16,819 bases of DNA from Candidatus Micrarchaeota archaeon. GTDB taxonomy: Archaea > Micrarchaeota > Micrarchaeia > Norongarragalinales > SBBD01. The stretch lies in contig JBBSVW010000090.1 of NCBI GenBank assembly GCA_038046605.1, positions 1 through 16,819 of the forward strand, read 5' to 3'. The notes beneath the pieces were generated by a model. That model did not search any database, had not been told where the DNA came from, and worked only from the letters and a program-made list of their open reading frames with translations. Both the position numbers and the translations under genes were made by a program. Shown here in pieces: positions 1 through 13,951 of this stretch; positions within the stretch are counted from its first letter, which is position 1; each line of letters starts with the position of its first letter.

Positions 1-691
1 TAAGATCGACCACGAATTCGGGGATTGCTATCCCCAAAGAGAGTATGGTAAAGCCCATGATGATGGGGTTTATCTTGAAATCCTTGACAATTGCTATCGC
101 AGAATCCACTATGAAATTTGAAGCCAGGTAAGCAATTGCCAGGAGCAGGAGCATTTGGCCAAGGGCCGCCCAAAGGCTCCTGACCTTAAGGCCTTGCATG
201 AAAACGGCATGCGTAGTTTCCTCCTCGCGCTTTGCAAGCGCCTCCTGCTCCTTGATGTTGTAAATGTACATCAGGTAAACAACCATTAGAAGCAGGCCCT
301 CGATTGCCGAGAGCTTTCCATCAAATAATAGGAAGAAGGGGATTGCCAATACAAAAAATAGCCAGCCGAAATTCTCAATGATGGTCGTTTCCCTGACCTG
401 GAAATTGCCCTTGATTATTGTGACAAGACCAAGGACCAGGCATATGACGATGATGTTTGCGCCAAGAAGGGTTGAGATCATAAGCTCAGCTTGCTGCTGC
501 GATGCCGCCTGCGTGCTGACAAAAAGGTCCGGAAGGGATGTGCCAAGCCCCAATACTACAAAGCTTAAAAGGAATTTTGGCAGCCTTAACCTGGTGGATA
601 TTCCCGTAAGCAGATTGACGACCCTATTGCTCGTTGCGCCCAGTATGATAAGGGAAATGAGAAGGGTGGTAACGCTTGCCGTAAATCCCAT
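1..691 (-). CDS. Ca2+/cation (Na+/Ca2+) antiporter, CaCA/YrbG family; 3' end runs off the window
   Basis: Not in the ORF track because there is no stop in the window. Hand translation from ATG 691 gives MGFTASVTTLLISLIILG...VVLGLGTSLPDLFVS...LLGANII...LSLGIAIPEFVVDL, with many TM segments plus alpha-1 (GTSLPD...GAN) and alpha-2 (GIAIPE) repeats. GGAG SD lies upstream. Confidence 0.88.
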   Translation of the reverse strand, partial: MGFTASVTTLLISLIILGATSNRVVNLLTGISTRLRLPKFLLSFVVLGLGTSLPDLFVSTQAASQQQAELMISTLLGANIIVICLVLGLVTIIKGNFQVRETTIIENFGWLFFVLAIPFFLLFDGKLSAIEGLLLMVVYLMYIYNIKEQEALAKREEETTHAVFMQGLKVRSLWAALGQMLLLLAIAYLASNFIVDSAIAIVKDFKINPIIMGFTILSLGIAIPEFVVDL

Positions 692-3419: not shown

Positions 3420-4265
3420 CTAAACTATTTCGTGGGGCAAATTTACTTCCTTCAAAATTGAAATCAATTTATCCCTAGTCGCCGCATTCATGCTCTTCTT
3501 CTCTATCAACGCTACCTCCAGCTTTTCCGCGCTCTTTTCCATCGCCTGCTTCACGATTTCCGGAGTTACCTCATCCAGATTGTGCTTTGAGCACACGTAA
3601 GCGAACTCGTAATTTTGTTCCAGCATCAATCTGGAGAATTTAGAGCAATAATGCGTTCCCCCAAAGCCGATTGCGGTTTTAGCTTCTGGACTAGCCTTTT
3701 GCCCCTTTTTCCATTTATTGCAAACTTCCATAATGCAATCGGAAAACAGGTCTCCGGCTACTTCATTTGCGAACTCCTTATCCGTACTGCCAATTTCCAC
3801 GAAAAGGATTGGCGCTTTGAGGGGCGTTGGTCCGTGGTGGGTTGCCTCCATTGAAAACGGGAAACCCTCAAGCGGATGGGAAGATAGGTAATTGGAAGCA
3901 ATTTTCAGAGCTGATGCGGATGAATGCGCCAACTCATTGGGATTACCGCCCAATTTGTTTCCAGCTCCGAAATTGCCGCACGTGTGCGCCGTCACCGCCG
4001 GAGAATTGGTTTCGCTCTTATGGGTTGATGCAACAATCAGGAGGTCGGCATCATTGAACAGAGGATAATCCTTCAAATAATCCGAAAAAATGTGCAAGGT
4101 GGTTAGTTCGACGAGCTTCAATCCGTTTTTTTCCCAGCTGCGCCATTCGTATTTCCCATCTCCACTCTTTATATGGGGCTTTTCCAAAAAGCCATGCTTT
4201 CCAATAAGGGATTTTGCAATCGTCTCCCCGGCAAGGTTCCCTTTGCTGAATGCAATAAGAGGCAT
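3420..4265 (-). CDS. dtdA: D-aminoacyl-tRNA deacylase (archaeal DTD2/DtdA)
   Basis: Motifs STHKS, HTCGNFG, EATHHGP, FVEIGST and GFGGTHY. The start is most likely ATG 4265 (MPLIAFS), because the track's upstream extension overlaps E1. Confidence 0.95.
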   Translation of the reverse strand: MPLIAFSKGNLAGETIAKSLIGKHGFLEKPHIKSGDGKYEWRSWEKNGLKLVELTTLHIFSDYLKDYPLFNDADLLIVASTHKSETNSPAVTAHTCGNFGAGNKLGGNPNELAHSSASALKIASNYLSSHPLEGFPFSMEATHHGPTPLKAPILFVEIGSTDKEFANEVAGDLFSDCIMEVCNKWKKGQKASPEAKTAIGFGGTHYCSKFSRLMLEQNYEFAYVCSKHNLDEVTPEIVKQAMEKSAEKLEVALIEKKSMNAATRDKLISILKEVNLPHEIV

Positions 4266-4316
4266 GGAATAATTGAAATGGGAGAGATTAAAAAATTCCA
4301 GCGCTTGCATATTTCC

Positions 4317-5087
4317 ATGGAAATCGACTCCGATCCATTCGATAGGCAAAAACGGATACCAAGCTGGGAGCAGGGGCCAATCACGGATGCAAATGTGCTT
4401 GTGGTGGGTGCTGGCGCCCTTGGGAACGAAGTTGTGAAATCGCTTTGCCAATTAGGTGTTGGCAAGATCACGCTTGTTGATTACGATATTGTAGTTAAGG
4501 CTAATTTGAACCGCTGCTTATTTTTCACGCCGGAAGATGCAGAAAACAAGATGCTAAAGGCGGAAGCTATTGCCGAAAGGGCACAAAAGCAATATCCCGA
4601 AACTAAAATTTCATACATAATCCGGAAAGTGGAGGAGCTGAAGGAGGAATTCTATTCCGAATTCGATTGCGCATTTTCCTGTCTTGACAATTTGAATGCC
4701 AGATTGCATTTGAATGCGCAATGCTATGGCAAAATCCCCCTAATTGACGGCGGCACAACCGGCTTTTTGGGCAAAGTGCAAGTTGTCAAATCCCCCTCCA
4801 GCTGCATCGAATGCGCGATGAGCAAAAATGACTACAAGCTTTTGTGGCAAAAATACAGCTGCGTCGGGGAGGTGCTGGATTTCATCGATCCCAAGATGCC
4901 GGCTCTCTCAACAACCAACAGCATCATCGCAGCCCTGCAGGTAAATGAATTTCTTAAATTGAGAATGGATTCCCTGAAAAACGAAAACAACCTGGTCGGG
5001 AAATACCTGCTTTTTGACGGGAGGAAAAACGGCTTCCGGATTTTCGAGGTTCAAAAGAGGAAGGAGTGCCCGGTGCATTTATTATGA
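4317..5087 (+). CDS. Ubiquitin-activating enzyme E1-like (ThiF/UBA fold, UBA3-like)
   Basis: VLVVGAGALG nucleotide-binding motif, DYD..V..NLNR, CLDN..AR, PLIDGGTTGFLG, CIEC and C-terminal CPVH zinc ligands, and a candidate catalytic Cys in KYSCVG (codon 4860-4862). Start is 4317 or 4278. Confidence 0.93.
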   Translation: MEIDSDPFDRQKRIPSWEQGPITDANVLVVGAGALGNEVVKSLCQLGVGKITLVDYDIVVKANLNRCLFFTPEDAENKMLKAEAIAERAQKQYPETKISYIIRKVEELKEEFYSEFDCAFSCLDNLNARLHLNAQCYGKIPLIDGGTTGFLGKVQVVKSPSSCIECAMSKNDYKLLWQKYSCVGEVLDFIDPKMPALSTTNSIIAALQVNEFLKLRMDSLKNENNLVGKYLLFDGRKNGFRIFEVQKRKECPVHLL

Positions 5088-5962
5088 AAATACTCGCAAT
5101 TTCAGACCTAGGAAGCTGGGAAGGTTTAAAATCTATATTCGATAAGACAAAACCCGATGTGGTGGCACTCGCTGGCGATTTAATATCAGACGGTTTTGCT
5201 GAATTTCGGGCAAGTGTATTCGAGAAAATTCCGAAATTCAAACAAGAGAGAAAAATACTCATGAAAAGATTCGGAGTTACGCTCTCAAAAACCGGTTCTT
5301 ACTGTCTTAATGGCAATAACTTTAGTGTATGGGCTGACGCACTTGATTCACTAGAAGATAAATATGAAGCAAGCTCGGAGTTTGAAAAAATTAGGAAAAC
5401 TATTCATACAGATAAGTTTTACGATTTTCTAAGATATGCTGGAAAAAAATCATCGGTTATTGTTGTTAAAGGCGATCACGATGAAGATTTTAAAAATGAA
5501 TACAATTTAGAATTAATTAACAGCATCCGAAAGTGCGCGGAAATTTCAGGGAAATTATTGAATATCGATGGAATGAATTTCTTAGGCTTAGGCTTTAACG
5601 AAACACACTACTTTCGAGTTCTTCGACCTTTAGTAAAAAAATACCAAAATAAGGTAGACGTTCTTGTAACTCATGCTGAACAGGAAAGAATGCCCATTTT
5701 AAGCCAATTTAGCCCAAAATTAATCATTCGGGGACATTTTGGCTCTGGAAAATACTACGTGAACAATATTCCGTCTGTCTTCACAGCTGATGCTTATTAC
5801 TCAACTATTAATATTGGCTTCAATGGAATTATCGATATTATCCAATATGCCAAAAACCATGATAAGAAAATAACTATTTTAGAAAAAGGAAGCTGCGCTC
5901 CTTGGTTTTCTAACAAATCTGAATTCGAAATATATAGTTGGCTTAAACCATATTCAGAATGA
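5084..5962 (+). CDS. Calcineurin-like metallophosphoesterase with degenerate motifs
   Basis: MKILAISD, PDVVALAGDL, VKGDHD, LVTH and IIRGH. The start overlaps the E1 stop (ATGA at 5084-5087). Confidence 0.85.
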   Translation: MKILAISDLGSWEGLKSIFDKTKPDVVALAGDLISDGFAEFRASVFEKIPKFKQERKILMKRFGVTLSKTGSYCLNGNNFSVWADALDSLEDKYEASSEFEKIRKTIHTDKFYDFLRYAGKKSSVIVVKGDHDEDFKNEYNLELINSIRKCAEISGKLLNIDGMNFLGLGFNETHYFRVLRPLVKKYQNKVDVLVTHAEQERMPILSQFSPKLIIRGHFGSGKYYVNNIPSVFTADAYYSTINIGFNGIIDIIQYAKNHDKKITILEKGSCAPWFSNKSEFEIYSWLKPYSE

Positions 5963-7048
5963 GATATCCGTTATCTGCTTGAATGCCTCCTCGACCTTGA
6001 AATCGCCCATTGCCCCCCCGCCGCCAAGCCTTCTTCCGCAGCGCACGCATTTGGTATCGCCCGAAATTATCGCTTCAAAGCAATCCTTATGGTAAGGGGC
6101 GCCGCAAAAGCAATGGCCGTACTTTGGGTTGTGCTCTTCTTGCTTGACGGAAATCATGAATCCGGTTTTGCATAGCTCGCATTTCTCATCGTTTGAGGAG
6201 ATTTCGGCTGCTTTGGATGACATTTCTGAAATTGCCCGATTGTAAAAAGGCTTAGCAATGTCTGAATTGGGCTTGGAAGCATTTTTGGATGGGGAATTTC
6301 GTTTTTCTGAATTTGGCGATTGCTTATCAATGGTATCATCTGCTTTTGCATCAAAATCCTTCCCATCTTTTTTGACTATATGCCGCTCAACGAAGGGCGA
6401 AGTTTTCTTCAAGAGGCGCTTTTGCTCATCAGTTGGACCAAACCTTCGCATGAGGTCCATTATGTCAATTGTTTCTTCCGAACGCTTCTCCTCCGGAAGC
6501 TCCTGTATCTGCACATGGCGCTGCTCTATTGCCTTCCAGAGGATTTCAACAGGCAGTTTTGCCTGGATTGTATGGGAAAAATCAATAGGCTTGTTATCGG
6601 TTGGGTGTTGGTTTTGGCTATCAATAGCCGATACAGCCCCATTCCCCTCAGGTTTAGCCTTAATTTTTTTCTCCTTCCTCCCAAGCCATGCATCGGCAGC
6701 TTTTTTCCATTTCTCAGAATAATCATTGACACCCTTCATGCTAAGGAAAATGGATTTGGAATCGCCGGAAAATGAGATGTAGCCGCCCTCGCCAAGGGAT
6801 TTGAGCCTTTCGAGGAATTCTGCTTCACCGACATTGAAAATGGCGCGCATTTCGGAAGCATCGCTTTTACCCTCCTTCAATAATTGCAATAGGATGAAAT
6901 CGAACTTCTCCAGCCTAAGCTTTGGCCCTGCCTTCAATGGCACGGCTATTGCCCGCTTTTTCCTTGGGCCTTTTTGCTTCTTTTCGGGTATTCGCGCATC
7001 TATTGCCGGCTCCATTTCCACAATGATCCTCTCCTGGATTTCGTCCAT
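5954..7048 (-). CDS. Winged-helix + C-terminal C4HC3 RING-type zinc finger protein; putative E3 ligase
   Basis: wHTH-like segment LEKFDFILLQLLKEG...LERLKSLGEGGYI...LSMKG (about 6720-6920), a low-complexity linker, then C-x2-C-x19-C-x-C-x4-H-x2-C-x10-C-x2-C (6038-6181). The CGAPYHKDC core resembles prokaryotic RING family 1. ATG 7048; GTG 7057 is an alternative. Confidence 0.75.
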   Translation of the reverse strand: MDEIQERIIVEMEPAIDARIPEKKQKGPRKKRAIAVPLKAGPKLRLEKFDFILLQLLKEGKSDASEMRAIFNVGEAEFLERLKSLGEGGYISFSGDSKSIFLSMKGVNDYSEKWKKAADAWLGRKEKKIKAKPEGNGAVSAIDSQNQHPTDNKPIDFSHTIQAKLPVEILWKAIEQRHVQIQELPEEKRSEETIDIMDLMRRFGPTDEQKRLLKKTSPFVERHIVKKDGKDFDAKADDTIDKQSPNSEKRNSPSKNASKPNSDIAKPFYNRAISEMSSKAAEISSNDEKCELCKTGFMISVKQEEHNPKYGHCFCGAPYHKDCFEAIISGDTKCVRCGRRLGGGGAMGDFKVEEAFKQITDISF

Positions 7049-7140
7049 AACAACCACAATTGCGGATTGTGAAAGGCATTTACGAACGAATCAATTTCCA
7101 TTATTCATGTTTTAGACAAATTTTCTAATTCCACTTGGTT

Positions 7141-7623
7141 TTACTTCTTATCAATAACAGCAAAGCTTACCTCATAATAAGCATTTCCCTCAACACGAAA
7201 AATCCGCTCCTGCATCCTGCCGCCCTCCTTTTTCAGGGGATCAACCACCATTGCAATATTGAAGGGAGCGGAAAAATACTTGTTTTGCGTTGCAACATCG
7301 GTTGCCGAAAGCCAGCAGCCGTACGATGGGTGCGAATGGATCCAGCCAACTATCAGCTTCTTTTCCTTGAAATGCTTGCTGAAAGCCTGTGTGAGCTCTG
7401 CGAATGCCAATTTGTTGAATTTGACAGAAACCGCAGTTGAGCTGTTGCTGGCGGTTATGAAATGATCCACCACCACATATTCAAATCCCTTCCATTGGAA
7501 AATATCCCCCACCAGCAGCCCCAGCGCCTCTTTTCCATGCCTTGCGGCATCCTCCATGATCCGCTCCGCCTTTTGAAGGGCCGGATTTGAGATGTAAACA
7601 TCAAATGGATGCAAAGAATCCAT
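7141..7623 (-). CDS. JAB1/MPN+ (JAMM) metalloprotease, Rpn11/CSN5-like
   Basis: EALGLLVG...IVGWIHSHPSYGCWLSATD...AMVVDP gives the full E...HSH-x7-S-x2-D JAMM motif. GGTGA SD before ATG 7623. Confidence 0.95.
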   Translation of the reverse strand: MDSLHPFDVYISNPALQKAERIMEDAARHGKEALGLLVGDIFQWKGFEYVVVDHFITASNSSTAVSVKFNKLAFAELTQAFSKHFKEKKLIVGWIHSHPSYGCWLSATDVATQNKYFSAPFNIAMVVDPLKKEGGRMQERIFRVEGNAYYEVSFAVIDKK

Positions 7624-7701
7624 GGAGTTCACCAAAATTAAATGAATAAAGACTAGGGGGAAAAGGGCTAAAACGCATCAACCAAACATATTCCAAATCG
7701 C

Positions 7702-8037
7702 CTAGTCCAAACCAATTATTTTCTTTATCTTTTTCCCTAAATCATGCCTTTTCTTGCGATCCTCAGTGATGCGCTTTTGGAGCTCGCCATGCTCAAGCGG
7801 GGGCGAAACCGGGGTTATATCCGAAAGCATGTCCTCCCGCAGGCGGTCCCTTGCCGTATCAACTGATTCGTACCGCTCAATTTTGCGCTTTCCAAGGATC
7901 AGATTGTCGGGCTCGTCGTTTTCAAGGAGCATGGAATAGTCCCGCTCCTCAACAACTTTTGGCTTTTTGGATGCGCTGTGCTTTTTTTCCTCAATGTGCT
8001 TCTTTTCCCTAACTTCGACAACACGCGGCTTGCCCAT
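7702..8037 (-). CDS. Hypothetical charged protein in the ubiquitin locus, with two KP[KR]VV motifs
   Basis: ATG 8037 with GGGGGAG SD. Sequence begins MGKPRVVEVREKK...SKKPKVVEE. Co-oriented with JAB and RING. Confidence 0.7.
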   Translation of the reverse strand: MGKPRVVEVREKKHIEEKKHSASKKPKVVEERDYSMLLENDEPDNLILGKRKIERYESVDTARDRLREDMLSDITPVSPPLEHGELQKRITEDRKKRHDLGKKIKKIIGLD

Positions 8038-8148
8038 AACACTCCCCCATATTGTTTGCCCAATTTGCAACAAAAAAGCTTAAGGGGCGAAGGCATTAAT
8101 ATACTTTCTAGCGTCATCTAATTAACCTAAAAAAACTGGGTGACCCAC
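8038..8148. promoter_or_regulatory. Divergent promoter region for the JAB/RING arm and the Ubl/E2/nurA arm
   Basis: 111-bp AT-rich gap between divergent genes. ATTAATATA TATA-like element near 8095-8103; GGGTGA SD at 8138-8143. Confidence 0.45.
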
Positions 8149-8391
8149 ATGGCAGAATTCAACATTACGGTTTCGCACACAACAAGCGGGAAGGAGACGG
8201 TTCTTGCAGTTGAGCCCGAATTCACGGTTTCTTCCGTGCTTGAGGTTTTGACGGAATCACTCCAGCTAAAGGACCGCTTTGTTTTGGCAACGGAGGACAA
8301 TAAAATCCTCAATCCGGAGACCTCGCTTCTGGAGGCTGGAATAAAGGAGAACGATACGCTATTGCTGATGCCCGACCCGACGGGGGGATAG
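8149..8391 (+). CDS. Ubiquitin-like protein (beta-grasp), 80 aa, ending in Gly-Gly
   Basis: TTSGKETVLAVEPEFTV resembles ubiquitin TLTGKTITLEVEPSDTI. KILNPETSLLEAGIKENDTLLLMPDPTGG* resembles [35 protein letters not shown] SD. Confidence 0.92.
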   Translation: MAEFNITVSHTTSGKETVLAVEPEFTVSSVLEVLTESLQLKDRFVLATEDNKILNPETSLLEAGIKENDTLLLMPDPTGG

Positions 8392-8393
8392 GC

Positions 8394-8765
8394 ATGCCCG
8401 AAAGGAATGAGAAAAGGGGAAAGGTTCCGCAGGTTAATGCAGGCGAAGGCGAGCATAAACTTGTTGAATTTATTCGCGCCACCAATTTGCAAGCGCCAAG
8501 CAATAGTGGAAAGCACTTAATCCGGGGCTATATGACGGGAAACAAGCTTTGGCTGCAAGCCCAGGGCGGAATAGATAATGCGCTCGAACAAAAGCTTAGG
8601 GAACTGGGAATAGAGCACACAAAGCACCGGATTTCGATACCACATACCCCAAGGGCATTTTCTATTGATGAGACCCATCTTACCGGCGATTTATTCCGTA
8701 GGATCAAGCTTTATTTCGATGCCCATAAGGAGGCACATATTGTGTTTTCGGCCGATCAACAATAG
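8394..8765 (+). CDS. Hypothetical protein between Ubl and E2
   Basis: 123-aa ATG ORF starting 2 nt after the Ubl stop. No recognisable family. Confidence 0.7.
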   Translation: MPERNEKRGKVPQVNAGEGEHKLVEFIRATNLQAPSNSGKHLIRGYMTGNKLWLQAQGGIDNALEQKLRELGIEHTKHRISIPHTPRAFSIDETHLTGDLFRRIKLYFDAHKEAHIVFSADQQ

Positions 8766-8868: not shown

Positions 8869-9357
8869 ATGCCCCAGCTTCCGGATGCGGTGTTCCAAAG
8901 AAGGCTTTCAGCTGAGTTTGATGGCATGCAAAAGGCTGGCTTTCGGTTCAGCGCCGACCCCTCAAAAATCAGCTACGAAGTCGAATTGAAGGCAAAGGCT
9001 TTGCAACGGATTGGAAGCTCAATTTCAGTTCGAAACAACCACAAATTCAGGATTTCGTTAAAGCGCTCATACCCCTATGCCGGCGGCTTTGATGTTGTCT
9101 GGCTAACACCTATTTTCCACCCTAACATCAATGACAAGGATGGGAAGGTATGCATCCATATCCTGACCGATTGGGCAGCCTCGCAAACGCTTGCGGGCTT
9201 AGTCAAGGGCATCGAGCACATGCTGACACACCCAAATGTTAAGAGCCCCCTCAATGTGGATGCCGGCGAATACTTCTATTTCCACCCCGAACTGATTGAT
9301 AATAAGTTCGACAATTTGGAAAAAACAAGCAAACCAAAAATTGTTTTGCAGAAATGA
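8869..9357 (+). CDS. Ubiquitin-conjugating enzyme E2 (UBC fold)
   Basis: RRLSAEF N-terminal helix, YPY, TPIFHPNI...GKVCIHIL..W (H84-P85-N86, catalytic C95 at codon 9151-9153), and L.HPN..SPLN..A. Confidence 0.95.
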   Translation: MPQLPDAVFQRRLSAEFDGMQKAGFRFSADPSKISYEVELKAKALQRIGSSISVRNNHKFRISLKRSYPYAGGFDVVWLTPIFHPNINDKDGKVCIHILTDWAASQTLAGLVKGIEHMLTHPNVKSPLNVDAGEYFYFHPELIDNKFDNLEKTSKPKIVLQK

Positions 9358-9509: not shown

Positions 9510-9588
9510 GAATTGAATCATCATATGATTTGGCAAAATGGATCGGCATCCATCCCCTTTTTCAACCCAAAACCAGCACGATAAAGTT

Positions 9589-10662
9589 ATGATCAACGAA
9601 TCCGCAATCAAAAACGCTGTTGAGCAGATCCAGGCAGGCGAGAGCGCGCAAAAACGCATCGCGGAAAAAATGCGTGCGGAAAAGGGGGAAATAGCCTTTA
9701 GGGAATCACTAGAGAAAAAGCTGATCAATGAAATTCCGGATATCGAAGTAAATGGGAAAGTTGCCGCAGTCGATGGGGGCCTTCTTGCCGAGGAGCTGCA
9801 TTCAATTGACATCGTCTTGGTGAGGGCTGCCGCCGTGATTTTCGAATATGAAAACTCCAAACTCAAAAAGCACCACTACCACCCTTCGTCATTCCCGGAT
9901 TACGAGGTTTACACCCCATCGGCACTGGACGCCCACGAGGCGATTTGGTTTAGGAATATTGCGCGTCTGGAAAAGGAAATCAGCTGCGCAATCGAGGCAA
10001 TTGAAAAATACGCCCCAAAAGCGCTTTTCCTGGACGGCTCGATTGTGCCGCAGGTATCGGATAAGCCCGCCAAGGAATCTGAAATTTACCCCCACTATGA
10101 GAATCTAGTGGAAAAATACAAGAAACTCTTTTCAATTTCGGAAAAAAGCAATTGCCTGCTTGTGGGCATAATCAAGGACTCAAGGGGAAAGCAGTTCCTC
10201 AATTTGGCGCAGAGGCATTTGGGGCTTGGGGTAGCGGATGATATGGTTTTGAAGAAAACAAATGATTCGGCTTTCCTGTTCAATTTGCTAAATGAAAAGG
10301 AGCGGACGTTTGCATTCAAGTATGCAAGCATAACAGAGCACCCAATCCTTAGGGATTTGCACGAATACGCAGACCGGATTTCCTCATTCTACCTAAAAGC
10401 CGTGAAATACGATAGGCCCCTTCGGATTGATTTCCTGCTTCCGGAGGGCGATGGCAAGCGAATTGAGGAGACCGCATCCTTAATCTACTCATTAAGCAAG
10501 CACAACTCACAATATGCTTATCCGGCAATCCTAATTGAAGCTGATTTGAGGGCGGCAATGGACCCAAAGGAGCTTGAAATTGTGTATGGAAGGATATTCT
10601 CATCGCTCGGTAGGCAATCCAGCATATTCAAATTGAGAAGGAATACAAGGCCGTTCAGGTAG
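9589..10662 (+). CDS. nurA: NurA 5'-3' DNA double-strand-break repair nuclease
   Basis: AAVDGG, FLDGS, GIIKDS and YPAILIEADLRA motifs. Start is ATG 9589 or 9538. Confidence 0.92.
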   Translation: MINESAIKNAVEQIQAGESAQKRIAEKMRAEKGEIAFRESLEKKLINEIPDIEVNGKVAAVDGGLLAEELHSIDIVLVRAAAVIFEYENSKLKKHHYHPSSFPDYEVYTPSALDAHEAIWFRNIARLEKEISCAIEAIEKYAPKALFLDGSIVPQVSDKPAKESEIYPHYENLVEKYKKLFSISEKSNCLLVGIIKDSRGKQFLNLAQRHLGLGVADDMVLKKTNDSAFLFNLLNEKERTFAFKYASITEHPILRDLHEYADRISSFYLKAVKYDRPLRIDFLLPEGDGKRIEETASLIYSLSKHNSQYAYPAILIEADLRAAMDPKELEIVYGRIFSSLGRQSSIFKLRRNTRPFR

Positions 10663-10690: not shown

Positions 10691-11452
10691 CTATTCAATC
10701 GTAGTATTTGTCGAATTTGTGGTTAGGTTAGACGAAATATAGGTCGTTTGGCCGGATGTTATTGAAAACATCTGGAAATCCGGATTATAACCAGTCTTGC
10801 GGAATTCAAGGACATAGCTATTTGGATATAGGGAAAGCGTCAAGGGCGAAACGCCCCTAAATGGGTATGGGTACGACGAACCCGATATTCCAACGTAAAC
10901 ATTAGCTCCTGATGGCGTTGTCCCCGCCATTAATGTTCCATTTGCCGGCGGCACGGATGGTGAGGGGGTTGGTGTGCTCGCATTTACCGTAGGCGTTGGC
11001 GATGATGCATTGACAGTAGGTGTTGGTGAGGTCGCATTAACAGTCGGATAAACGCTTGGAGATGGCGTAGTCGCATTTACTGTCGGAGTTGGGGACGATG
11101 CGTTTATGGTTGGTGTGGGCGAAGTTGCGTTCACTGTGGGGATAATGGTCGGGGTTGGAGTTAACGAAACAGTTGCCCACGGCGTTGCTGTTGAATTAGC
11201 CTTTTTAACGCACGTGAGTGCATCCCCGCACGAATAACCGGTTGGACAGCCGCATTTTAGGCAATTTTGTACGGTAAAGCCACCCTGGCAATAATATGGT
11301 TTTGTTGCAAGGCATTGCCCATTTTGGCTAGCTGAACATTTTAATGGCCCGATTGCCTCGCCGACCGGTGAGGACAGGCTAGGAACAACATAAAATAGAA
11401 TTACGCCAAGAATAACAAGCGCCGCAATACCATACAGAATCTTATTGTCCAT
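10691..11452 (-). CDS. Membrane-anchored or secreted surface glycoprotein: TM helix, Cys-rich domain, Pro/Thr-rich repeats, PEGA domain
   Basis: N-terminal ILYGIAALVILGVILFYVV helix, an 8-Cys segment, PTVNATSPT repeats, and a PEGA-like C-terminus GTL...TTPSGANVYV...G.SPL.....PNSYVLEFRKTGY. ATG 11452; 11464 is an alternative. Confidence 0.85.
   Translation of the reverse strand: MDNKILYGIAALVILGVILFYVVPSLSSPVGEAIGPLKCSASQNGQCLATKPYYCQGGFTVQNCLKCGCPTGYSCGDALTCVKKANSTATPWATVSLTPTPTIIPTVNATSPTPTINASSPTPTVNATTPSPSVYPTVNATSPTPTVNASSPTPTVNASTPTPSPSVPPANGTLMAGTTPSGANVYVGISGSSYPYPFRGVSPLTLSLYPNSYVLEFRKTGYNPDFQMFSITSGQTTYISSNLTTNSTNTTIE
10967..11140 (-). repeat. Intragenic 27-bp / 9-aa tandem repeats PT[VI]NA[TS][ST]P[TS], 6 copies
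   Basis: PTVNATSPT PTINASSPT PTVNATTPS (PSVY) PTVNATSPT PTVNASSPT PTVNASTPT, with synonymous DNA divergence between copies. Confidence 0.85.
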
Positions 11453-11555
11453 TTGTACCACCATAAATTATTACGTTTAAAGAGTAAAGCAATATTTTTA
11501 AACTAATTATATCCCTATTGGGCGGAAGTGCTTGAAATATGTGGGGCAAAAATAG

Positions 11556-11933
11556 CTATTTTTGAATTAAATCATCAAATTTTATCCCCGAATTCAACTC
11601 CTTATCACTTAGGGTAAACGCCTTTTCCGTCTCCTTCATCGTGATGAGCGGAAAGAACCTCCACTCCTCGCGGCTCACCTTCCAGGCGATGTAAAAAGGG
11701 ATAGCCGTGCGGGCTTCGAATTCCTTCATCGCAGCCATCCGGTCCTTTTCGATCCAAAGGTTCCCGGAATTCCAAGCCTTGCATTCTATTGCAAATTTCT
11801 TGGTGGAACTAAGAACAATCAGATCCGGAGAAGTTGAATCGTGAGCGCTCCCTGCTGCGCGCACAACGAAAAAACCCCTCCCCTCGAACATCTTCTTTAG
11901 CTGGCGTTCGTAGTTGGCGCCCTTTGTGGACAT
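11556..11933 (-). CDS. hjc: Holliday junction resolvase Hjc
   Basis: KGANYERQL...GFFVVRAAGS....PDLI.......AIECK is the Hjc PD-(D/E)xK signature. Confidence 0.95.
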   Translation of the reverse strand: MSTKGANYERQLKKMFEGRGFFVVRAAGSAHDSTSPDLIVLSSTKKFAIECKAWNSGNLWIEKDRMAAMKEFEARTAIPFYIAWKVSREEWRFFPLITMKETEKAFTLSDKELNSGIKFDDLIQK

Positions 11934-12784: not shown

Positions 12785-12901
12785 ATGAAAAACAAGAAAT
12801 TTACATTCAAGGACCACAAGGCCGACACGATTGACACCGCCAGGGGGCTAAGCCCCCTACGCGTGTCGCCCCTACCCCCTTATTTTGAGGAGCTAATATG
12901 A
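12785..12901 (+). pseudogene. Duplicated, diverged 5' fragment of archease (38-aa ORF) interrupted by a GC-rich hairpin
   Basis: MKNKKFTFKDHKAD versus archease MKSKRFIFKDHKAD (11/14 identical), each preceded by GGAGC. The ORF ends at an ATGA overlap with the archease start. Confidence 0.7.
12833..12873. repeat. GC-rich inverted repeat / REP-like element
   Basis: AGGGGGC-TAA-GCCCCCT perfect stem (12842-12858), extended by GACAC/GTGTC (12833-12867). The minus strand reads GTAGGGGCGACAC. Confidence 0.6.
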
Positions 12902-13326
12902 AAAGCAAGAGATTCATTTTTAAAGATCATAAAGCGGACATGTTCATAGAAGCCTACGGCAAAAGCTATCCGGAGGCATTGGAAAATTGCGCCGCGGGCC
13001 TATTTGAAACGATTTGCGATGCCTCCAAATTGAAGGAAAGGAAGAAACTCTTGGTGAAGGAAAAAGCATCCACACTTGAGCAGCTCACAACTTTCCTCCT
13101 TAATAAAATCGTTTCCGAGGGGGACGCTAGGGAAATGATGTACAAGCGCATGAAGGTAATTAAATTCGAGGAAAAGAAAGGGATGTATTCCGTGAAAGCG
13201 CAGGTTTTTGGCCAGGAAGCGGTGCACAAACTTGGGCGAATGTATGTGAAGGCGGTAACGCACCATGAAGCAACGGTTGAAAAGAAGGGAAAAAATTGGC
13301 TCATTAGGGTATTGCCGGATATTTGA
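12898..13326 (+). CDS. Archease (RtcB tRNA-ligase cofactor)
   Basis: DHKAD (for DHTAD), IEAYGKS...ALEN.A.GLF, VKAVTHH and a terminal DI. GAGGAG SD. Confidence 0.93.
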   Translation: MKSKRFIFKDHKADMFIEAYGKSYPEALENCAAGLFETICDASKLKERKKLLVKEKASTLEQLTTFLLNKIVSEGDAREMMYKRMKVIKFEEKKGMYSVKAQVFGQEAVHKLGRMYVKAVTHHEATVEKKGKNWLIRVLPDI

Positions 13327-13327
13327 G

Positions 13328-13951
13328 ATGATTTTTATGAGGATGGTTGCAAAAGGCGCAGAGGGCGAAATATTTGAACTGGAAAAAGGCGGAAAAAAGC
13401 AGATTCTGAAGCGCCGCGTTGTGAAAAAGTACCGCATCCCAGAATTGGATAAGAAAATAAGGGAGGCACGAACCAAACGGGAGGCAAAAGTGCTTTTTGC
13501 AGCCAAATTGGCAGGAGTCAAATGCCCCTTGGTTTACGAGGTAAAAATGAAAGAAACCGAAATACTGATGGAAAAAATTGAGGGGAAAAGATTGAGGGAA
13601 TTATTGATTGAAGGCACCAAAGGCGCCAGAAAAATCCTGATTGAAGTGGGCGAAAATTTGGCTAAATTGCACAACTCCAACATCATCCACGGCGATTTTT
13701 CAACAGCGAACGTCCTGGTTACCTGGAAAGGGGAGATTGCAGTCATCGATTTCGGGCTGGCGGAAATCTCAGCATCAATTGAGGATAAGGCAACGGATGT
13801 TTTGGTGTTCAAGAAGAGCTCTAAAAAGGAGGAATTTGAAGAGTTCTGGAAGGGCTATGCAAAGGAAAGCAAGAATGCAAAAGCGGTTTTCCGGCAGCTA
13901 ATGGAAATTGAAACGCGCGGAAGGTATGTTGCTAGGGCGCAGGCGGGTTGA
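13328..13951 (+). CDS. bud32: KEOPS complex kinase/ATPase Bud32
   Basis: KGAEG, KKYRIPELDKKIR..RTKREAKVL, HGDFSTAN and IDFGLA. Start is one of 13328, 13337 or 13343. Confidence 0.95.
   Translation: MIFMRMVAKGAEGEIFELEKGGKKQILKRRVVKKYRIPELDKKIREARTKREAKVLFAAKLAGVKCPLVYEVKMKETEILMEKIEGKRLRELLIEGTKGARKILIEVGENLAKLHNSNIIHGDFSTANVLVTWKGEIAVIDFGLAEISASIEDKATDVLVFKKSSKKEEFEEFWKGYAKESKNAKAVFRQLMEIETRGRYVARAQAG

Follow-up and report, generated by a model that had tools for sequence, protein, structure and literature searches.

The 16,819-nucleotide contig JBBSVW010000090.1 of a Candidatus Micrarchaeota archaeon from groundwater (assembly GCA_038046605.1), hereafter the window, encodes at positions 8149..8391 of the forward strand a small ubiquitin-like protein (Ubl) of 80 residues followed by a stop codon, whose C-terminus PDPTGG ends in a free Gly-Gly. 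This Ubl is very likely the modifier of a working ubiquitin-type conjugation system in a Micrarchaeota (DPANN) archaeon. It folds and aligns like ubiquitin, ends in a conserved Gly-Gly and is encoded in a cluster, syntenic across the host order Norongarragalinales, together with eukaryote-like E1, E2 and JAMM enzymes. The catalytic steps, the E3 role and the targets that we propose below are all modelled by analogy on the reconstituted cascade of Candidatus Caldiarchaeum subterraneum. A system of this kind is already known from Caldiarchaeum (Aigarchaeota) and from Asgard archaea; what is added here is a tool-based, near gap-free alignment with ubiquitin, a lysine-by-lysine account of conservation that includes K41, and a map of the recognition residues.

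As ubiquitin reference we used residues 1-76 of polyubiquitin P0152, which was taken from a profile search of 1.84 billion representatives, opens with five identical 76-residue repeats and matches the PDB chain 8q7r_U ('Ubiquitin') with 1594 bits. Placed at an offset of +4 without gaps, the Ubl shares 18 of 76 residues with this reference (in ubiquitin numbering T7, G10, K11, L15, V17, E18, P19, T22, V26, K48, L50, L56, I61, T66, L67, L69, G75 and G76), the same count and the same residue list that an earlier note on this DNA had given. The remaining offsets from -3 to +8 yielded 1-11 identities each, and shuffled versions of the Ubl yielded a mean of 5.3 (standard deviation (sd) 2.2), with at least 18 identities in none of 20,000 shuffles whether the offset was fixed or the best of five was taken. 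The ungapped BLOSUM62 score was 35, compared with -39 (sd 13) for the shuffles, and none of 5,000 shuffles reached 35.

The claim of the earlier note that the two proteins align without gaps holds from T11 to G80 and fails at strand 1, which sits at +3 (F4=M1, I6=I3, V8=V5) and leaves H10 as a single inserted residue. This placement is common to the AlphaFold2 (AF2) model, to the structural aligner VIA-align and to a MAFFT alignment bridged by distant relatives, and the refined alignment contains 20 identities over 76 residues, in agreement with the identity of 27-29% over 73-75 columns reported by Foldseek. MAFFT in its L-INS-i and G-INS-i modes, applied to 17 sequences including the distant bridging relatives, was gapless from T11=T7 to G80=G76. 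VIA-align paired residues 4..80 of the model with ubiquitin 1..76 (75 aligned, root-mean-square deviation 2.0, chain 7eao_A) and residues 1..80 with 79 chain residues (78 aligned) in 5b83_A and 3q3f_A. The AF2 model, built from a 49-row alignment with a predicted local distance difference test score (pLDDT) of 79.7, has its elements in beta-grasp order (strands 4-10, 16-21, 44-48 and 69-75, helices 27-38 and 60-63), which we take to be the pattern of ubiquitin 1UBQ displaced by four. Because the element pattern, VIA-align and the bridged MAFFT alignment concur, the gap-free reading from T11 to G80 is favoured. Against it stand three sequence-only aligners (Needleman-Wunsch, the HMMER family profile and hhalign, the last with a probability of 38%), which open two gaps of three residues each, one offsetting the other, in the region of residues 41-51 and thus conflict with the structural alignment there. 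These gaps are disfavoured because VIA-align pairs 75-78 residues, which such gaps would forbid; the conflict over strand 3 is settled in this way only indirectly. Given this conflict between aligners, the residue equivalent to I44 is T48 or, less likely, V45.

The fold places the Ubl among ubiquitin-type proteins. Foldseek against the PDB returned at least 500 matches, and the 48 listed (ranks 1-49, one missing) are ubiquitin, SUMO, ISG15, NEDD8, UBL domains and designed ubiquitins with TM-scores of 0.78-0.85, among them the bacterial Ubl 8tyx_A, from a Ubl-deubiquitinase entry, at rank 38 and Caldiarchaeum ubiquitin 6fno_D (TM 0.84) at rank 49. Among 48,161 representative chains compared by VIA-align, the best 50 have Z-scores of 13.3-11.1 and 49 of them are ubiquitin or UBL domains, the exception being a pore chain of type VII secretion (ESX-5) at rank 49 (Z 11.1); ubiquitin chains align over 74-78 residues with Z 12-13. 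No ThiS, MoaD, SAMP or Urm1 chain occurs among the 48 Foldseek or 50 VIA-align matches listed. The earlier note had named clustering with ThiS, MoaD and SAMP sulfur carriers as the outcome that would speak against a ubiquitin-like protein, and the listed fold matches are of the ubiquitin type instead. The predicted model supports a ubiquitin-type beta-grasp and disfavours the ThiS/MoaD/SAMP type.

Profile searches are less favourable to this placement. The Pfam ubiquitin family PF00240 scores 14.7 bits, below its cut-off of 25.4, and the other sub-threshold matches are UBL_UBAC1, Rad60-SLD, DUF2604 and YukD (15.5 bits, cut-off 27). The 49 members examined scatter over Pfam at E<=0.01, with 43 reaching Rad60-SLD, 34 YukD, 31 DUF2604 and 25 ubiquitin, and a single ubiquitin domain meets the family profile in the PDB search with E values of only 0.1-0.7. 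Thus, the Ubl is a member of the ubiquitin-like superfamily with the geometry of ubiquitin, and by curated score it lies outside PF00240. These profiles also bear on a different explanation, namely that the protein is a sulfur carrier of the ThiS/MoaD/SAMP/Urm1 type, with or without SAMP-like conjugation, that is served by the E1 only and has the E2, JAMM and zinc-finger genes as unrelated neighbours. One of the 49 members touches Pfam ThiS (PF02597) with E 0.0017, whereas the Ubl itself has no ThiS match at E<=0.1 and its listed structural matches are ubiquitin and UBL domains, bar the one ESX-5 pore chain.

The enzymes of the cluster argue for ubiquitin-type conjugation. The E1-like adenylating enzyme (4173..5087, forward strand) consists of a ThiF domain only (Pfam ThiF, 4.7e-47, residues 65-301), and its best PDB matches (4e-24 to 1e-20) are 9qgg_B 'E1 ubiquitin-activating enzyme', UBA6, the NEDD8-E1 catalytic subunit, UBA1 and SAE2, with ThiF and MoeB weaker at 5e-17 and 6e-14. 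The E2 (8869..9357, forward strand) has the UBC fold (Pfam UQ_con, 1.8e-16), an HPN motif and a catalytic Cys in 'GKVCIHIL'; its best PDB match is UBE2C (1.3e-10), in which HPN and Cys are aligned, and the genome contains no other UQ_con match. On the reverse strand, a JAMM/MPN+ metalloprotease (7141..7635; Pfam JAB, 2.5e-14) carries the signature H-x-H-x7-S-x2-D and finds in the PDB, in this order, Rpn11 (4e-15), CSN5 and the Rpn11-like protein of Caldiarchaeum (6e-11). All three enzymes score above their Pfam thresholds and find eukaryotic proteins first in the PDB sequence search. By this resemblance the JAMM protein is probably the deconjugating enzyme, and the processing enzyme in those relatives whose Ubl carries a C-terminal extension. 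A protein of 367 amino acids (5954..7057, reverse strand) is a RING-like E3 candidate: its C-terminal zinc finger, C-x2-C...H-C-x-C-x4-H-x2-C...C-x2-C, follows the C4HC3 pattern, with eight Cys/His ligands that are invariant in 33 aligned homologues.

Two points about these enzymes weigh against a complete cascade. Pfam detects no C-terminal domain of the E1 beyond ThiF, and so no evident route by which it would recruit an E2. The zinc-finger protein has no match in Pfam, PADLOC or NCBIfam, its domain was predicted by AF2 from a 33-row alignment with a pLDDT of 48.5 that we judged unusable, and its suggested E3 role derives from the ligand pattern and synteny. As a side observation, the open reading frames (ORFs) of the E1 and, on the opposite strand, of the D-aminoacyl-tRNA deacylase DtdA (3420-4451) overlap by ~280 nucleotides (4173-4451). 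Because of this overlap, and because the Pfam matches begin only at residue 65 of the E1 and residue 133 of DtdA, the real starts of both genes are probably internal.

A word-indexed search recovered 174 proteins at E<=0.001 among 175 candidates; 120 of these relatives, 68-96% identical, are listed, and conservation is counted over 121 sequences, that is, the query and the listed relatives. All 25 of the listed rows whose NCBI names mention an organism are assigned to Micrarchaeota/Micrarchaeia or Norongarragalinales. PDPTGG is invariant (121/121), and Gly-Gly stands directly before the stop codon in 95 sequences, with an extension of 1-21 residues past Gly-Gly in the other 26. The profile search added distant relatives, which include polyubiquitins and archaeal or metagenomic Ubls with a PDPxGG tail, one of them from a Methanofastidiosia metagenome-assembled genome. 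Three of the distant relatives (P0146, P0151 and P0170) are Ubl-E2 fusions in which the UBC domain follows straight after PDPxGG, and such fusions would require a cut after Gly-Gly to free the Ubl. A further distant relative, P0135, is a tandem di-Ubl joined to a hydrophobic C-terminal region.

This tail also bears on the idea that the protein is a non-conjugated ubiquitin-like adaptor, either YukD-like or a free UBL domain, which would only bind partners. The 34 of 49 members that touch Pfam YukD and the ESX-5 pore chain in the VIA-align list are what such an adaptor would lead one to expect, but an adaptor would account neither for the invariance of PDPTGG, with 95 of 121 members ending exactly at Gly-Gly, nor for the tight synteny with E1, E2 and JAMM, and type VII secretion genes were not found among the 16 window ORFs scanned with Pfam. 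We regard an adaptor as extremely improbable, and we continue with the Ubl as the modifier of a conjugation system.

Conservation of gene order was followed by tblastn in 57 loci from 57 species genomes, nearly all of Micrarchaeota, Micrarchaeia or Norongarragalinales. JAMM was present in 53 of these loci, the E2 in 52 (downstream of the Ubl), the zinc-finger protein in 49 and the E1 in 45, and the cluster genes keep their order and orientation across related loci. Several of the genes missed by tblastn belong to loci that are truncated where a contig stops, and a distant JAMM is all that remains in L041 and L054. Across 201 genomes sampled from the phylum, the host among them, the Ubl was found in single copy in 24 of 24 other sampled genomes of the host order and in none of 176 genomes of other orders; in the host genome it is likewise single-copy.

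The synteny of E2 and JAMM, together with the Ubl-E2 fusions, does not suit a sulfur carrier with chance neighbours. Such a carrier has in its favour that 4 of the 120 listed relatives are named 'molybdopterin converting factor small subunit', that the E1 has a ThiF domain only, and that NCBIfam ranks ThiF, MoeB and UbaA models first for the E1, all of them far under their cut-offs. On the other hand, the genome holds elsewhere a second ThiF-family E1 (C105:9256-9942), which at 198 bits scores above the cluster E1, and a small ThiS-family ORF (C58:60-236), and these two likely form a SAMP/sulfur-carrier pair apart from the ubiquitin-type system. Moreover, genes for MoaE, ThiG and tRNA thiolation are absent among the window ORFs scanned. 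A sulfur carrier is therefore highly improbable in our judgement, and ubiquitin-type conjugation is retained.

The same distribution can be set against an anti-virus module of the bacterial Bil/CBASS-Cap2 kind (CBASS, cyclic-oligonucleotide-based antiphage signalling system), in which the Ubl would tag proteins of an invader rather than those of the host. The set of Ubl, E2, E1 and JAMM genes is the same as in Bil operons, the Foldseek list contains the bacterial 8tyx_A, the E1 touches PADLOC 'E1-E2' (Cap2) models with values up to 8e-18 and the JAMM protein touches 'JAB' models, and the slot between Ubl and E2 carries variable, unrelated genes in several genomes. However, these PADLOC matches of E1 and JAMM span generic domains only, the Ubl and E2 match no PADLOC family (PADLOC-DB 2.0.0 of 2023, which may lack Bil models), and the best matches of E1, E2 and JAMM are eukaryotic enzymes. 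The single-copy presence in all 24 sampled genomes of the order and the position of DtdA beside the E1 in 35 of 57 loci indicate a vertically inherited core system and not a patchy defence island. Hence we consider a defence module very improbable, and a core modifier system is assumed in what follows.

By analogy with Caldiarchaeum, such a system would work as follows. The Ubl would be made already mature, with its Gly-Gly free, and the ThiF-type E1 would adenylate G80 and then hold the Ubl as a thioester. The single UBC-type E2, encoded downstream, would accept the Ubl on its catalytic Cys and move it onto lysines of target proteins, a step in which the C4HC3 zinc-finger protein would serve as RING-like E3. 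Finally, the Rpn11-like JAMM would take the Ubl off again and, in the roughly one fifth of relatives whose Ubl is extended at the C-terminus, would trim the extension.

The surface through which ubiquitin is recognised has changed in this family. In the refined alignment, L8 is replaced by T12 (120/121), I44 by T48 (99/121), I36 by L40 (121/121), R42 by L46 (119/121), H68 by L72 (95/121) and V70 by M74 (88/121). The earlier note had described the L8/I44 patch as altered, which is right in that both residues are now threonines and overstated in that L46, L72 and M74 keep the face largely hydrophobic. Its reading of the tail, with LRLRGG replaced by PDPTGG, is borne out by the alignment: L71-R72-L73-R74 of ubiquitin correspond to P75-D76-P77-T78, each present in 121 of 121 members, and D76 stands at the position of R72. 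R72 is a main determinant of E1 recognition in ubiquitin. The different recognition surface that had been proposed is thus seen in T12, T48 and the invariant D76 of the family. The invariant acidic, proline-rich tail P75-D76-P77-T78 implies, as far as sequence can tell, a recognition code unlike that of eukaryotic E1s and deubiquitinases, and by analogy it makes orthogonality to eukaryotic enzymes plausible.

The translation contains exactly four lysines, K15, K41, K52 and K66. The alignment bears out the pairs pointed out in the earlier note, K15 with K11 and K52 with K48, and likewise the offset of K66, which precedes K63 by one residue. K52 stands at K48 in four of five alignments, the exception being the HMMER profile alignment, which places its gap otherwise. 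The lysine set of the note was incomplete, however, since it left out K41, which is aligned with ubiquitin P37 and is kept in 121 of 121 members. K15 is kept in 120 (N once), K52 in 109 and K66 in only 73 of 121 members; among the 80 positions, K41 ranks 10th in conservation, K15 16th, K52 34th and K66 62nd. Arg is never found at position 15 or 41 in the 121 members, and because of this and of their conservation K15 and K41 are the most strictly constrained lysines. In the 17-row bridged alignment, the K11 column holds K in 12 rows.

Whether these lysines accept further Ubl is a hypothesis here and not a result, and several observations weigh against it. As conservation of at least 90% is reached at 35 of the 80 positions, lysine conservation is weak evidence for an acceptor role. 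K52 is replaced by Q (6) or R (6) in 12 of 121 members, and the K48 column of the bridged alignment, with K in 13 rows, has R in three others and D in one. These substitutions suit an electrostatic or a structural function no less than an acceptor function. That two of four Ubl lysines fall on two of the seven lysine positions of ubiquitin has a hypergeometric P of 0.040, so a chance coincidence is only mildly improbable. We hold it somewhat less likely than not that Ubl-Ubl chains are built at all; if they are, K15 and K41 and then K52 would be the likeliest acceptors judging by their conservation, and K66 would be an unlikely one. An elaborate form of this idea, in which K15 (K11-like) and K52 (K48-like) chains and lineage-specific K41 chains are read by the proteasome or an AAA unfoldase, seems unlikely to us; the genome does encode the alpha and beta subunits of a 20S proteasome. 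If it were true, a linkage code that relies on the same two principal acceptor sites would be older than eukaryotes or have passed between archaeal phyla, and this minimal set of a single E1, E2, E3 and deubiquitinase would be the simplest natural system for the study of linkage choice.

Caldiarchaeum offers the closest comparison. Its E1/E2/RING cascade works in vitro and produced ubiquitin-ubiquitin linkages at K4, K53 and K68 by mass spectrometry, and the residue of its ubiquitin that corresponds to I44 is a threonine (T46), as described in PMC5654768. Both systems combine a Gly-Gly modifier with a eukaryote-like E1, a UBC E2 and a zinc-finger E3 candidate, and both have an Rpn11-like protease on the opposite strand. 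T46 of Caldiarchaeum ubiquitin has its counterpart in T48 of the Ubl, and each protein has a lysine in the turn between strands 3 and 4 near K48 (K53 there, K52 here). They differ in that the Ubl here is mature as encoded whereas Caldiarchaeum ubiquitin is trimmed by Rpn11, and in the tail, PDPTGG here against a TVGG ending. The E3 candidate here is a multi-domain protein with no usable predicted fold, unlike the small RING protein of Caldiarchaeum, and the E1, with no domain detected beyond ThiF, is unlike the Caldiarchaeum/Asgard type. Moreover, the genes lie in two divergent units plus the E1 rather than in an operon as in Caldiarchaeum, and the host is a DPANN archaeon instead of a member of the Aigarchaeota or Asgard.

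Compared with eukaryotic ubiquitin, the Ubl has the same order of elements and equal loop lengths, with 75 of 76 residues structurally aligned. Lysines at K11 and K48, the terminal Gly-Gly and the hydrophobic core residues I3, V5, L15, V17, V26, L50, L56, I61, L67 and L69 are retained, whereas K6, K27, K29, K33 and K63 are absent and the invariant K41 is extra, at the P37 position. Eukaryotes have polyubiquitin or ribosomal-fusion genes and here there are none, the gene being single-copy. The Bil (ISG15-like) and CBASS Cap2/Cap3 systems resemble the present one in their compact Ubl/E2/E1/JAMM set and in a beta-grasp Ubl with a C-terminal Gly, but the system described here has in addition a zinc-finger E3 candidate, is order-wide and syntenic with housekeeping genes, and has enzymes nearer to eukaryotic E1, E2 and Rpn11 in the PDB sequence search. 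With the Haloferax SAMPs and with ThiS/MoaD and UbaA it has in common an archaeal beta-grasp Gly-Gly protein and a ThiF-family E1; it differs in that an E2 is present and the Ubl falls outside the Pfam ThiS family. To our knowledge, SAMP systems have neither E2 nor E3.

We found no literature report of a ubiquitin system in Micrarchaeota or other DPANN archaea, with the proviso that the supplements of PMC5654768 ('Cluster III') may list further archaeal lineages. The word 'ubiquitin' is absent from the main text of the Norongarragalinales genomics papers PMC8561730 and PMC12892359 and from the first 300,000 of the 769,434 characters of PMC7203096, and in portions of PMC6222260, PMC6514570 and PMC4571572 the search terms occur only in unrelated passages. 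Eukaryote-like ubiquitin systems of archaea serve arguments about where the eukaryotic system came from, and an order-wide, highly conserved system in Micrarchaeota extends their distribution to DPANN. With a near-gapless alignment and the K11/K48 lysines, but another tail and an altered face, the Ubl is a natural test case. It raises the question which features of ubiquitin are old, with the fold, the lengths of the loops and the positions of K11 and K48 as candidates, and which were refined in eukaryotes, as may hold for the LRLRGG tail, L8/I44 and the remaining five lysines. In addition, the Ubl system is a candidate orthogonal tagging system.

Some features around the Ubl gene complete the picture of the locus. 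A Shine-Dalgarno-like GGTGA (8139..8143, forward strand), whose role we infer, ends 5 nucleotides ahead of the ATG at 8149. This element, and the Met at the aligned start position in 89 of the 121 sequences, favour the ATG at 8149 over the GTG at 8140 as start codon. A putative TATA-box-like element, TTAATATA (8096..8103, forward strand), read from the sequence, would lie in the 75-nucleotide intergenic region between the divergent units. The other unit, with the JAMM and zinc-finger genes, is headed by a small Lys/Glu-rich ORF (7702..8073, reverse strand) that has no family match in Pfam, PADLOC or NCBIfam and was found by tblastn in 12 of 57 loci. Between Ubl and E2, starting 2 nucleotides past the Ubl stop codon, lies a lineage-specific ORF of 123 amino acids (8394..8765, forward strand), which has no significant family match and whose sole homologue, with 40% identity, is in locus L002. 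Most relatives have nothing in this slot, and their E2 begins about 250-290 nucleotides past the Ubl start. A wider gap is seen in the window and in eight loci (L002, L003, L017, L023, L032, L047, L055 and L056), seven of which hold mutually unrelated ORFs of at least 129 amino acids, and the only homologous pairs are the window with L002 (40%) and L017 with L023 (31%). The slot thus appears to be a variable cargo position.

Between the E1 and the zinc-finger gene lies a calcineurin-like metallophosphoesterase (5066-5962, forward strand), in a region of 36% GC compared with 44-50% in other 1-kb windows; tblastn found it in none of the 57 loci, and the gene seems to have been inserted into the cluster recently. 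The flanking genes serve housekeeping functions, with DtdA on the side of the E1 and a NurA nuclease (9538-10662, forward strand) beside the E2, the latter arrangement being found in 8 of 57 loci. Further downstream lie an Hjc resolvase (11556-11933, reverse strand), an archease (12898-13326, forward strand) and a RIO/Bud32-type kinase (13265-13951, forward strand). The ORF at 10691-11464 (reverse strand) encodes a protein that is probably secreted or located at the surface. Its N-terminal segment is hydrophobic, another segment is rich in Cys, it carries Thr/Pro-rich 'PTPTVNA[ST]' repeats, and it has a marginal match to the PEGA domain (20.6 against 20.8 bits).

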